Source: Escherichia phage vB_EcoM_swi3
Reading direction: 5' to 3' (one strand)
Sequence record: MT768059.1
DNA length: 52,782 nucleotides
Notes under the pieces: model-generated
Told to the model about the DNA's origin: nothing
The model's database searches: none
What the model saw: the letters and a program-made list of their open reading frames with translations, nothing else
Translations under genes and position numbers: made by a program
Part shown: positions 14,089-20,966 of the stretch, piece by piece
Position numbering within the stretch: the stretch's first letter is position 1
Layout: each line of letters opens with the position of its first letter

Positions 14089-14539
14089 CGGTTCATGCAT
14101 TATTGGTGAAGAGTCTGGTACAGTTGATGGTACACCGTATGTTTATCTGCGCCCTGGCGACGCATATGACTTCGGACCTCCTAGAACCAGACAAGGCTCT
14201 GACGGCTTTGAGTACGTCAGCAAGCCAATGATGACGGCTGTACGTATTACAGCTGTCGGTAAGAATGCTGCTGAGCTAATGCGTAAGCTACACATAGCAC
14301 TGGGTAGTTCACCAGCTAAGCAGTTTAACCGTTTACGACATTATGCAATAACCAAAATATCGAAGATTGATAATGTCGGTGGTGCTATTGGTGCAGGCTA
14401 TGCACAGAAGTCAATGATGACTGTTGACATTAGCTATGTGCATAAAGTTAAAATTGAGCAACCGTACATCTACAAGGTTGACATCACTTGTATGGATGAC
14501 AACGGTAACAAAGCGACTGGTACAGTAGAGGAACCGTAA
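14012..14539 (+). CDS. hypothetical structural protein
   Basis: ATG at 14012 preceded by GGAG; overlaps upstream ORF by 77 nt in another frame. Confidence 0.35.
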   Translation: MATTTLQQFSIKDLRELVQKLLTLPDGSCIIGEESGTVDGTPYVYLRPGDAYDFGPPRTRQGSDGFEYVSKPMMTAVRITAVGKNAAELMRKLHIALGSSPAKQFNRLRHYAITKISKIDNVGGAIGAGYAQKSMMTVDISYVHKVKIEQPYIYKVDITCMDDNGNKATGTVEEP

Positions 14540-15162
14540 TGGCAACTGGAGTAGACCCGGAACTGCAAGCGCAGCTGGATAAGCTAACAACTGCTGTCCA
14601 GCTCATTCATGACTTCGGTATGTCAGACGACCCAAATATCCCTAACCCGGAAGGTGGTGTCATACGCACACTCGAAGGCATTAACGCTGCAATCAATGAA
14701 GCTATACCAAACTTTGAAAACGCTAACGAAGCTGCTATACAGGCACGTGCTGCTCGTGATGCGGCTATTGCAGCCAAAGAAGCTGCAGAAACCGCAGCTG
14801 AACAGGCCACAGTAGCTTCGACGTCAGCAATCTATGAGTACGGCAACGTTGCAAGTGCAGCTACAGTGACTATACCAGCTGCAGCTAAAACAATTGTCAG
14901 CCTTACTCTTAACCAGCCAAACACCGTAATTAATATCGGTGGTGTATCTGACCCGTCTACTGTTGCGCGTCAGATTACTATTGCTATTAAGCAAGGCACT
15001 GGTTCTAACAAGGTGACTTCTTGGGATCCAAGAATAAAATGGGCCAACAACAGGAAGCCCGTTCTGTCATTCCTTGTGGGTTACACAGATGTTGTTACGT
15101 TGCTGACCTTTGACTCAGGCGCAACTTGGATGGGTTTCTTTAACGGTGGATGGATTAAATAA
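14539..15162 (+). CDS. hypothetical structural protein
   Basis: 207-aa ORF, Ala-rich helical N-terminus. Confidence 0.4.
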   Translation: MATGVDPELQAQLDKLTTAVQLIHDFGMSDDPNIPNPEGGVIRTLEGINAAINEAIPNFENANEAAIQARAARDAAIAAKEAAETAAEQATVASTSAIYEYGNVASAATVTIPAAAKTIVSLTLNQPNTVINIGGVSDPSTVARQITIAIKQGTGSNKVTSWDPRIKWANNRKPVLSFLVGYTDVVTLLTFDSGATWMGFFNGGWIK

Positions 15163-18825: not shown

Positions 18826-18833
18826 GGAGCTGA

Positions 18834-20966
18834 TTGATGTCGCTTCCACTTAATGAGGTTGTCGACGTCCAGTTCAGTAAGAGCAACGGGGGTAAAGGTT
18901 TTACCCCCAATGTTCCGCTGGAAGGTATAATGCTTTCCAACTACGAGTACTCAATCGTCGCGGGTGATGACCCTGTTCAGCTAGTTGTGCGTTACATTCC
19001 AACCAACGCTACTGAGCGTGGTATGGCATGGAAATCTAGCGACCCGGACGTTATCACTGTTGATGAGCTCGGATTTGTGAAGCCACTGGCGGAAGGTGTT
19101 GCATACGTGACTGGTACGTCTGTTGACGGCGGTTATACAGTACGGGCAAAGTTTAACATTGCTCGGGCACCTATCCTTGTTGAATCTGTTACAGTATCTC
19201 CCACAAGTGTGACGCTTGAAGAGGGCAAGACTCAACGCCTTACATACACCTATTTACCTGCTAATGCAGACAAACCTGATTTCTACTGGATTTCAGACGA
19301 TGAGTCTGTTGCTGTTGTTAACGACAGCGGGCTTGTCACTGCCATTGGAGATGGCGAAACAACCGTAAACGTACAGTACGGTATTGATAGCTCTATATTT
19401 GATAGCTGTACTGTAACTGTTATTCCGCCTGTTGTACACGTTACAGGAGTTGAGTTTCTTACTCAGTCACCTCTTAACGTTAATATCGGAAGCACAGCTG
19501 GGACTAGTATTCGTATATCGCCAGAAGATGCCACTGACAAAACAGTGACATACGAAAGCAGTGCGCCTACTGTAGCAACTGTGGATACTGACGGAAATGT
19601 TACTGGTATTATAGCTGGTAATGCCACTATTACTGTTAAGACGAATGACGGTGATAAGACTGACACTCTTGACATTATAGTCAGGGTGCCTGCTGTAAAT
19701 GTTACTGGTGTAAGCATTGACGAAGGCGATACAGCTTCCATGGAAGTTGGTGACACTCTTCAGCTGCATGCCACTGTGACTCCTGAAAATGCTACTGACC
19801 CGTCTGTTGTATGGAGTGCTCCTGTATCAGAAGTTGCGTCTGTGACTGAAGCTGGTTTGGTAACTGCTAACGCTGCAGGCTTAATTGATGTTACTGTTAT
19901 CACTAACGACGGGAACTTTACTGACAGAATCGAGGTTAAAGTTACAGACCCCAGAATCGCAGTTACGGATGTTGCATGGGCTCCTGACTCTCCGACTAAA
20001 GTAAGCGCCGGCCATCAGGTGCAGACTAAAATTGTTATAACACCTGACAACGCAACCAACAAAAAAGTTAGCTATAATAGTTCAAACCCAGACGCTGTTA
20101 CTGTTGACACTAACGGAGTTATATACGGTCAATCTCCTGGAACTTCGACTATTACAGTTACAACAGACGACGGTGGACTTGTTGCTTCATTTGTAGCGAC
20201 TTGCACAGAGGTGGCTGTTATTACACCAGATGGTCTTGGTGGTATTCCAGTCGGTGGTACTCAGCAGTTCACTTACACTGTTAACCAGCCTGATGCTGAC
20301 CTGACTAATATTCGTTATGAGTCTGCTAACCCAGATATTGCAACTGTTGATTCTTCAGGCGTTGTAACTGGTGTTGCTAGCGGCGGATGTAACATCTGGA
20401 TTTACGCAACTAGCAATGGCGCTGACATTAGTGCAGCTACTTGGGCACAAATCTCTGAGAAGGTACAGGTATATCCTCAGTACGCCGAATGGCTTGTGGG
20501 TAACACCAAACAACTTGATGTTGAGATTTATCCGTCGGACTCTAAGAGCGTTACCGTTACTTACGAATCGTCGAATGACGCTATCATTAGTATAGATGCA
20601 AATGGCTTGATGACTGCTAAGTCTGAAGGTTCTGCAACTATTACGGCTAACGTTGTGATGAACGGTGTTGCTGCTTCTGGTACAACATCTCCTTACGTGT
20701 CTGAGCTTTCTGTTACTACTGATTCGCTGCCTGCACTTACTGTTGGCAACACGCAGCAGCTGGTTGTAACTGTTAGACCTGAATACGCTAAGACAGACCC
20801 AGGCTATAACATTCAGTATACAACTACAGACGATACTGTCGCTACTGTAAGTAATACCGGTGTTATTACTGGTGTTGGTAACGGTGGATGTCGTATTGGT
20901 GCCACAGTAACTGTGAGAAATGCTACAGCGTCGGACAGCTCTTATCAGTCCGTCGATGCAGCATAA
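18834..20966 (+). CDS. multi-domain Ig-like (Big_2-type) fibre/decoration protein
   Basis: 710 aa with at least 6 tandem ~85-aa repeats of the same Ig-like pattern. Confidence 0.65.
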   Translation: MMSLPLNEVVDVQFSKSNGGKGFTPNVPLEGIMLSNYEYSIVAGDDPVQLVVRYIPTNATERGMAWKSSDPDVITVDELGFVKPLAEGVAYVTGTSVDGGYTVRAKFNIARAPILVESVTVSPTSVTLEEGKTQRLTYTYLPANADKPDFYWISDDESVAVVNDSGLVTAIGDGETTVNVQYGIDSSIFDSCTVTVIPPVVHVTGVEFLTQSPLNVNIGSTAGTSIRISPEDATDKTVTYESSAPTVATVDTDGNVTGIIAGNATITVKTNDGDKTDTLDIIVRVPAVNVTGVSIDEGDTASMEVGDTLQLHATVTPENATDPSVVWSAPVSEVASVTEAGLVTANAAGLIDVTVITNDGNFTDRIEVKVTDPRIAVTDVAWAPDSPTKVSAGHQVQTKIVITPDNATNKKVSYNSSNPDAVTVDTNGVIYGQSPGTSTITVTTDDGGLVASFVATCTEVAVITPDGLGGIPVGGTQQFTYTVNQPDADLTNIRYESANPDIATVDSSGVVTGVASGGCNIWIYATSNGADISAATWAQISEKVQVYPQYAEWLVGNTKQLDVEIYPSDSKSVTVTYESSNDAIISIDANGLMTAKSEGSATITANVVMNGVAASGTTSPYVSELSVTTDSLPALTVGNTQQLVVTVRPEYAKTDPGYNIQYTTTDDTVATVSNTGVITGVGNGGCRIGATVTVRNATASDSSYQSVDAA

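Follow-up and report, generated by a model that had tools for sequence, protein, structure and literature searches.

The closest described relatives of the genes reported here are gp140 and gp141 of phage phi92. A review lists gp141 as a putative glycosidase of the multivalent adsorption apparatus of phi92 (PMC5380687), and the BASEL authors describe the assignments of fibre components in phi92/rV5-like phages as unclear. No member of the gp141 family has a solved structure or a demonstrated activity. A homologous gene pair occurs in a 52,782-nucleotide stretch of DNA from Escherichia phage vB_EcoM_swi3 (MT768059.1; the whole stretch is called the window below), where it is part of a block of four co-oriented genes located between the neck terminator gene and the tail sheath gene. 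The predicted products are 207, 985, 212, and 709 amino acids (aa) long. The 985-aa protein is 43% identical to phi92 gp141 over 977 aligned residues, and the 207-aa protein is 39% identical to the C-terminus of gp140. We favor, with a probability of roughly 0.55, a model in which the block encodes an accessory host-surface-recognition module of the virion. This module would be built from two units: a portable cassette comprising the 207-aa and 985-aa proteins, and a pair of proteins composed mostly of immunoglobulin (Ig)-like Big_2 domains.

Gene content and conservation of the block

The first gene of the block (positions 14539..15162; this and all other features described here lie on the plus strand) codes for the 207-aa protein, an orthologue of BP63 gp28 that matches PHROG 27998, annotated as 'tail fiber protein'. 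It is followed by the gene for the 985-aa protein (15162..18119), which is the orthologue of BP63 gp29 and a member of the phi92 gp141 family (PHROG 2871). Next are the genes for the 212-aa Ig protein (18187..18825), orthologous to BP63 gp30, and for the 709-aa Ig protein (18837..20966), orthologous to BP63 gp31. The 207-aa gene overlaps both the terminator gene and the 985-aa gene by 1 nucleotide (nt) (…TAATG…), and the second of these overlaps couples the 207-aa and 985-aa genes translationally.

An earlier note on this DNA, made from its letters and reading frames, had counted three genes in an insertion-like module. The module comprises four genes, and its distribution does not match that of an insertion. 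The window derives from a BP63-like Rosemountvirus. Across 7.5 kb that include the block, its nucleotide identity to more than 40 Salmonella and Escherichia Rosemountvirus genomes is 96-98%, with BP63, LPSEYT, and SPLA12 among the near relatives found by this query. Such identity across so many relatives indicates that the block is a conserved part of a known phage group, and not a private insertion. Moreover, the same four genes are present in the sister genus Loughboroughvirus, and the guanine-cytosine content of the block (0.45-0.48) is the same as that of the remaining window. The 7.5-kb query also shares 97% identity with PP583539.1, a record titled 'Listeria phage 220426122051' with Listeria monocytogenes given as the host, which is probably a case of a mislabelled host or a contaminant.

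In its degree of conservation, the 985-aa protein equals the portal and sheath proteins and exceeds both the neck proteins and the tail fibre. Its identity to the orthologue is 99% in BP63, 97% in birk, 94% in SE13, 83% in SE4, 82% in S144, 79% in KE25, and 76% in fHy-Eco03. The most variable proteins of the block are the Ig proteins. The fHy-Eco03 genome, which has terminal repeats of 3.7 kb (1-3699), carries an HNH endonuclease gene (12326-12694) inserted between the major capsid gene and the adaptor gene. The 'gp38' discussed in the paper on the Rosemountvirus SD286 was considered as a possible member of the block, but it is a 123-aa protein with a domain of unknown function (DUF) and does not belong to it.

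A portable two-gene cassette

In all five of the other lineages inspected, the small gene is located immediately upstream of the gene for the large protein. As in the window, the overlap between the two genes is 1 nt in phi92 (gp140/gp141) and Erwinia phage M7 (gp041/gp042). Adjacent small and large genes are also found after baseplate genes J and I in a P2/HP1-like Pseudomonas prophage, after the gene for the tail-tip J protein in a siphovirus, and in the gp17 slot of the T7-like podovirus Kaonashi. In the other lineages examined, the cassette occupies a tail-fibre/baseplate position, which is the slot for receptor-binding proteins (RBPs).

Across lineages, the conserved part of the small proteins is limited to the C-terminal ~100 residues (35-42% identity), and the N-termini are lineage-specific. 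Residues 1-97 of the 207-aa protein form lineage-specific helices that include a long coiled-coil-like helix at 59-97. The conserved β-sandwich, an invariable companion of the large protein, spans residues 101-206, and its fold resembles RBP-docking modules (CBA120 TSP4, T4 gp9). A sequence search with the 207-aa protein against the PDB returned no match. The N-terminus of the podovirus small protein is PF03906, the N-terminal attachment domain of the T7 tail fibre. In a P2-like contig, the large protein lacks its small partner and is itself joined directly to a baseplate domain, that of P2 gpI, and other large-protein homologues are fused to a podophage fibre-tail adaptor domain, to a non-contractile-sheath protein (NCTSP), or to Big_2 arrays. 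Because only the C-terminus is conserved while the N-termini include known tail anchors, the simplest reading is that the small protein serves as an adaptor, with a phage-specific N-terminal anchor and a C-terminal dock for the large protein.

Some of these homologues carry the fusion at their C-terminus, either as the NCTSP N-terminal domain plus a triosephosphate isomerase (TIM) barrel or as the fibre-tail adaptor domain of podophage GP4 gp77. Such fusions are further evidence for plug-and-play use across tail types.

Family and predicted fold of the 985-aa protein

Sequence homology places the 985-aa protein, along its full length, in PHROG 2871 ('tail protein'; E=0, 1426 bits). Homologues are present in 532 phage records that span myo-, sipho-, and podoviruses, including those of phi92 (gp141), rV5-like phages, SPN3US, Kolesnikvirus, and Vibrio phages, as well as in prophages of Pseudomonas, Acinetobacter, Brenneria, and Gluconobacter. 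An exhaustive profile search of 1.84 billion proteins yielded 377 family representatives at E<=1e-3, of which 325 fall below 1e-10. This small number indicates that the family is sharply bounded, without a sequence continuum to cellular enzymes. In one 1032-aa protein, 33 separate short stretches match the profile of the family, with the best match at its positions 793-819. This protein looks like a repeat protein made from one short segment of the barrel described below.

The earlier note had seen no recognisable motif in this protein, and had likened its Trp/Tyr-rich composition to that of glycan-degrading enzymes. The first statement holds for Pfam and NCBIfam, where there is no match, but not for the protein as such, because it belongs to the known phi92 gp141 family. 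The composition is as described (W 3.7% and Y 6.3%, compared with 1.5% and 3.2% pooled for the other structural proteins). A sequence search against the PDB found nothing except a weak helix-pair match to glycoside hydrolase (GH) family 76 when a profile was used.

The likeness to glycan-degrading enzymes is supported by structure prediction. An AlphaFold2 model was built from an 81-sequence alignment (~50% identity) and has a predicted local distance difference test score (pLDDT) of 90.5 and a predicted template-modelling score (pTM) of 0.86. In this model, helix pairs at residues 13-109, 344-381, and 752-974 come together in one split (α/α)6 barrel, which is interrupted by β regions at 127-326 and 405-702. 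Thus, the protein is predicted to be a full (α/α)6 GH-like barrel with β-sandwich inserts that resemble carbohydrate-binding modules (CBMs). In Foldseek searches, insert 2 matches CBM11 (prob 1.0; TM 0.53 when normalised by target length) along with other CBM and surface glycan-binding protein (SGBP) folds, and the whole-chain search gave domain-level matches only. The model contains no β-helix, and therefore the protein is not a classical tailspike.

The three barrel segments and two inserts can be mapped onto the gene. Barrel segment N (aa 10-126; 15189..15539) was delimited by secondary structure, invariant columns, and hhalign. Its family motif T-T-E-G-Q-S reads PSESQS in the window's protein and includes the invariant E73 (codon 15378-15380) directly before helix 2. 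Secondary structure and regional conservation define β insert 1 (aa 127-326; 15540..16139), within which aa 200-249 (15759-15908) make up a variable patch rich in Trp. Barrel segment M (aa 327-402; 16140..16367) carries the invariant motif N-A-A-D-A-E-x-W at the N-terminus of helix 4, with residues D345, E347, and W349 (codons 16194-16208). The CBM-like β insert 2 (aa 403-734; 16368..17363) is the least conserved region of the protein, and barrel segment C (aa 735-985; 17364..18116) includes the invariant elements PYPGYQYP, WNRWD, GYQPR, H884, and E960.

The 81-sequence alignment has 88 invariant residues, which are rich in D, E, H, R, W, and Y and are mostly located in the long loops leading into helices 2, 4, 6, 8, 10, and 12. 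In (α/α)6 glycosidases, the loops leading into those helices form the catalytic face. Both β inserts appear to emerge from this face in the model.

We compared the barrel with GH8, which includes the endoglucanase BcsZ. No match to Pfam GH8 (PF01270), or to any other Pfam or NCBIfam family, was obtained with 48 full-length homologues or with six insert-spliced barrels at E<=5-10. A barrel-only profile aligned by hhalign to a BcsZ profile, which is narrow because the search returned close orthologues only, gave one local match (Prob 1.3%, P=0.039), a marginal result given that 8 of 200 column shuffles reach the same score. This alignment pairs the family's TTEGQS, containing the invariant E73, with BcsZ TSEGQS at the same topological position. 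The BcsZ motif contains the catalytic acid of that enzyme, E55. A relaxed alignment, likewise of marginal score, is collinear over 334 columns and pairs NAADAE.W with SASDGD.W in the GH8 signature region, PYPGYQYP with NPSYLPP, and IWNRW with DWVRY. No Asp aligns with the catalytic base of GH8a (S-Y-D-A-I-R), where the candidate region reads GYQPRA / AARG. The marginal hhalign score, the lack of a PF01270 match, and the lack of a counterpart for this base Asp leave GH8 membership unproven, and we classify the protein as GH-like by fold only.

The Ig-like proteins

Pfam Big_2 matches two stretches of the 212-aa protein (E=2.8e-35, 120.6 bits) and eight stretches of the 709-aa protein (E=9.5e-94, 307.9 bits), in both cases above the gathering score, as expected from the tandem Ig-like repeats that the earlier note had described in these two proteins. 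The smaller protein has a ~40-aa non-Ig N-terminus followed by two Big_2 domains, and the larger has about eight domains. No tandem repeats were found at the DNA level in the Ig genes. For the larger gene, the mechanical open reading frame (ORF) call is 18834-20966. The ATG at 18837 is most likely the true start, giving 709 aa, because an AAGGAG ribosome-binding site is present at 18824-18829, the BP63 annotation agrees, and PHROG 28902 has 709 positions. We also considered whether the two Ig genes are fused by a frameshift. This was ruled out, since there are stops in the downstream frame just before the 709-aa start and the gene has its own ribosome-binding site.

Domain number varies among orthologues of the 212-aa protein, the fHy-Eco03 version being only 143 aa long. 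In the 709-aa protein, global alignment shows that the domain at aa 269-355 (nt 19641-19901; 87 aa) is absent from birk and SPLA11. An apparent 69%-identical allele in these two phages was rejected as a tblastn artefact of the repeated domains; the real difference is the 87-aa deletion plus 31 substitutions. The fHy-Eco03 orthologue is about 40% identical in its N-terminal half and 85-98% identical in its C-terminal half, while the rest of its genome is 50-87% identical to the window, and the SE13 orthologue has the opposite pattern. These block-wise identities indicate that the N-terminal half, up to about aa 350, follows the phylogeny of the phages and that the C-terminal half has been exchanged horizontally. 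Exchange of this sort is the usual signature of a specificity module. The earlier note had regarded the whole module as a possible host-range determinant. That proposal fits the C-terminal half of the 709-aa protein and the small variable patch of the 985-aa protein better than the 985-aa protein overall, which is conserved.

Cellulose as a candidate ligand

Published work provides a lead on the glycan. Transposon-directed insertion sequencing (TraDIS) in S. Typhimurium identified yhjL, N, Q, R, S, and U (yhj/bcs), genes for cellulose synthesis, as required by Rosemountvirus SPLA2 (PMC10949491). The window's proteins are of the SPLA2 type, with the 985-aa protein 98.7% identical to SPLA2 gp29 and the 709-aa protein 96.9% identical to its SPLA2 counterpart. 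Erwinia phage M7 (Kolesnikvirus), which is unrelated to SPLA2, is reported to be cellulose dependent as well (PMC13101476), and its gp041/gp042 cassette, located at the end of the fibre cluster, is 46-58% identical to the window's and has the same motifs. Precedent for such a reading comes from Erwinia phage S6, which uses cellulose as a receptor and carries cellulases on its virion. Cellulose is the best candidate ligand of the 985-aa protein that we can name, although we put this forward as a tentative proposal that is more apt to prove wrong than right. Cellulose is not generally required by phages that carry the cassette.

It is equally speculative that the PHROG 2871 family is an unrecognised, phage-specific offshoot of GH8-like enzymes that is borne on virions by a plug-in adaptor and targets cellulose, phosphoethanolamine (pEtN)-cellulose, or another conserved β-glycan. 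If so, one portable cassette would deal with matrix cellulose as a common first receptor or barrier, which would explain why SPLA2 and M7 depend on cellulose. In Klebsiella, random barcode transposon sequencing (RB-TnSeq) found five cellulose-biosynthesis genes that are required by a subset of phages in one family (PMC13412088). We found nothing on the 985-aa family in the RBPseg atlas, the φTE cryo-electron microscopy paper, a 255-phage receptor preprint, an O157 preprint, or Adler et al.

Proposed function and alternative explanations

In the model we favor, the lineage-specific N-terminus of the 207-aa protein would fix the adaptor to the phage tail, and its C-terminal β-sandwich would hold the 985-aa protein. 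The barrel of the latter, whose closest counterpart would be GH8, would carry its two β-sandwich inserts on the active-site face and would bind, and probably cleave, a conserved β-linked surface or matrix glycan, for which bacterial cellulose is the candidate. The cassette would help the particle to cross the matrix before the Mu-GpS-like tail fibre engages lipopolysaccharide (LPS). The separately promoted Big_2 pair would act as low-affinity glycan adhesins, with the 709-aa protein divided into a stable anchoring half at its N-terminus and a swappable specificity half at its C-terminus.

Support for a role on the virion comes from two relatives. Tandem mass spectrometry with electrospray ionization (ESI-MS/MS) of virions of S144, from the sister genus, detected gp16 (3 peptides), gp17 (25 peptides), and gp18 (17 peptides, 80% coverage). 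In addition, the GenBank record of fHy-Eco03 marks all four orthologues (gp28-31) as detected by liquid chromatography-tandem mass spectrometry (LC-MS/MS), a permissive set given that replication enzymes and many non-structural proteins are flagged too. Orthologues are therefore present in virions, and the predicted fold of the large protein is that of a glycan enzyme and not of a non-enzymatic structural family; these were the two points on which the earlier note had made its proposal depend.

Several observations weigh against our model. The N-terminus of the window's 207-aa protein matches no known anchor, and the genes of the block sit with, and are coupled to, neck genes. The S144 orthologue of the 709-aa protein, gp19, is absent from the virion mass-spectrometry list. 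Neither glycan binding nor hydrolysis has been demonstrated for any member of the 985-aa family. For cellulose in particular, the closely related SPLA11, whose gp29 is 97% identical, needs LPS genes (PMC10949491), S144 depends on O-antigen, and rV5/phi92-like carriers of the cassette infect K-12, in which bcsQ is a pseudogene. Between SPLA2 and SPLA11, the 985-aa protein shows 31 substitutions, 11 of them in residues 200-249 (including W221A) and others in insert 2 (S575Y, Y591C, and W620S), but the two phages are also distinguished by the 87-aa Ig-domain indel, by 14 substitutions in the 212-aa protein, and by 10 in the tail fibre. Because these differences are spread over several genes, the change in receptor cannot be assigned to any one of them.

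The position of the genes suggests a different place on the particle. The adaptor N-terminus could bind the neck/terminator ring, with the 985-aa protein and the Ig strings forming first-contact structures comparable to the whiskers that sit at the neck of T4. The genes follow the terminator gene directly and are translationally coupled to it by the 1-nt overlap, promoter-like sites at 12668 and 18126 enclose both the neck genes and the cassette, and the adaptor has a fibritin-like layout, in which a head at the N-terminus is followed by a helix of ~40 residues and a globular domain at the C-terminus. Its divergence pattern (55-79%) also resembles that of neck proteins. Yet gene order does not dictate virion position, and in five other lineages the cassette is in a baseplate/fibre slot with known tail anchors. 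Sequence comparison with solved neck fibres gave no match. Micrographs of S144 reveal short rigid fibres at the distal tail, with no mention of a collar or whiskers. The micrographs and the comparative tail anchors together favor a distal-tail or baseplate position, which we infer for the cassette of the window's phage. We therefore depart from the earlier note, which had proposed a neck or head appendage, and regard that arrangement as unlikely.

Even at the tail tip, the large protein need not be an enzyme. It could be catalytically dead and act as a lectin-like or structural component, with the cellulose dependence of SPLA2 and M7 due to other proteins. This would be consistent with the lack of any Asp or Glu convincingly aligned with the GH8a base, the PSESQS variant in place of TTEGQS, the absence of HMMER similarity to GH families, the isolation of the family noted above, and the lack of a cellulose need in SPLA11 despite its 97% identical protein. 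However, the loops of the catalytic face hold a concentration of invariant acidic, His, and Arg residues that exceeds the demands of a scaffold, E73, D345, and E347 do not vary among the 81 sequences, and the position of the catalytic base varies even among GH8 subfamilies. On balance we consider a dead enzyme improbable, at about the level of the cellulose proposal itself.

A somewhat better, though still minor, chance is given to the possibility that the Ig proteins have nothing to do with the cassette and are Hoc-like decorations of the capsid or sheath, which would stabilise the particle or stick to mucus or matrix instead of determining host specificity. The Ig genes appear to have their own promoter, the coverage of S144 gp18 fits an abundant protein, the one-domain indel looks like neutral repeat recombination, and the Ig proteins match PHROG 215, which is filed under 'head and packaging', with a Hoc-like chain among their PDB matches. 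On the other hand, the genes are located in the tail module, some gp29 homologues in other phages carry C-terminal Big_2 arrays within one ~1690-aa chain, and the exchange of the 709-aa C-terminal half between distant lineages is typical of receptor-binding tips.

Flanking genes and transcription units

The placement of the block between neck and sheath genes, as described in the earlier note, is confirmed by both flanks. The upstream gene codes for a neck/tail terminator protein (14012..14539), identified by PF23961 (E=1.3e-16), NF047498 (E=7.7e-15), the BP63 annotation, which maps onto the window with an offset of +44, and the junction sequence. Its true start is probably the ATG at 14012, and not the GTG at 13982 of the mechanical ORF call. 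Downstream is the gene for a DUF3383 tail sheath protein (21053..22192; PF11863, E=4.5e-72; PHROG 205), whose PDB relatives are the XM1 and Pam3 sheaths, followed in order by the tube, chaperone, and tape measure genes. A Mu-GpS-like tail fibre with two chaperones is encoded downstream of the baseplate genes (BP63 annotation; S144 paper). Thus, the four-gene block is additional to a conventional fibre.

A promoter-like site (TTTACT-17-TATAAT) at 18126..18154 lies in the gap before the Ig genes, where a promoter is annotated in BP63 and S144, and another of the same sequence at 20992..21020 precedes the sheath gene, where a promoter is annotated at the S144 equivalent. The motif TTTAC(A/T)-17-TATAAT is common to three late-region intergenic gaps, namely these two and 12637-12696, where the major capsid gene is followed first by a strong terminator hairpin and then by the motif. 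This arrangement suggests that the neck and cassette genes, the Ig genes, and the genes from the sheath onward may be separate late transcription units.

Farther downstream, the gene for the tail assembly chaperone (22654-23082) has a canonical -1 slippery heptamer, T TTT TTC, close to its 3' end (23022-23028, in register), and the -1 frame is open to about 23264. In BP63, the small coding sequence annotated as 'gp35' probably represents the end of a G/GT-type frameshift product. At ~3780-4600 of the window (BP63 3736-4557), ~0.8 kb without an annotated gene coincides with a switch from minus-strand to plus-strand transcription and may be a regulatory or origin region.

Implications and comparison with known systems

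Rosemountviruses and rV5/phi92-like phages are under development for the biocontrol of Salmonella and E. coli. If the cassette indeed places an enzyme that binds or cleaves a matrix glycan, possibly cellulose, on a portable adaptor, it would account for receptor-screen results that lack a responsible phage protein, it would make biofilm penetration predictable from genome sequence, and engineers could use it as a modular scaffold of adaptor plus effector. For tuning host range within Rosemountvirus, a concrete candidate is the C-terminal half of the 709-aa protein, which is mosaic.

The phi92 gp140/gp141 pair and its rV5-like, PVP-SE1-like, SPN3US-like, and Kolesnikvirus orthologues are direct homologues of the window's pair. 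The phi92 pair is found inside a baseplate/fibre cluster, whereas the window's is between the terminator and sheath genes, which is a difference in synteny and not in homology. The proposed adaptor follows the logic of known RBP adaptor modules such as the T7 gp17 N-terminal domain, P2 gpI, the CBA120 TSP4 N-terminal XD domains, and T4 gp9/gp10, in which an anchor specific to the phage is paired with a domain that docks an exchangeable distal protein.

With the GH8 endoglucanases (BcsZ, CelA; clan GH-M), the 985-aa protein has the predicted (α/α)6 barrel fold in common, but its barrel is interrupted by β inserts of ~200 aa and ~330 aa. Tailspike depolymerases instead are trimers with a right-handed parallel β-helix as their catalytic domain, and such a helix is absent from the model. 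Erwinia phage S6 (Schitoviridae) uses cellulose as its first receptor. Like SPLA2 and M7, it depends on host bcs genes. Its virion proteins gp094 (GH48) and gp095 (GH5) place a predicted (α/α)6-type glycosidase, GH48, on the particle. The S6 enzymes are recognisable members of CAZy families, and gp095 is active on carboxymethylcellulose, whereas the 985-aa family lacks CAZy membership at the sequence level.

Big_2 arrays on virions, such as T4 Hoc and the C-terminal Ig domains of major tail proteins, are believed to confer weak binding to carbohydrates (Fraser et al. 2006; Barr et al. 2013). The window's Ig pair likewise brings Ig-like domains to phage structural proteins, and its similarity to Hoc-like capsid decoration is of a generic Ig kind. 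In contrast to the Hoc and tail-protein domains, the window's Ig proteins are free-standing, with two and about eight domains, are encoded in the tail module, and in the case of the larger protein undergo RBP-like mosaic exchange of the C-terminal half. Overall, the block is best described as a known but uncharacterised accessory adsorption module, of the kind in which virion-borne tail proteins that bind or degrade glycans are combined with adaptors and Ig adhesins. It is set apart from other modules of this kind by its predicted split (α/α)6 barrel and by a testable link to bacterial cellulose.

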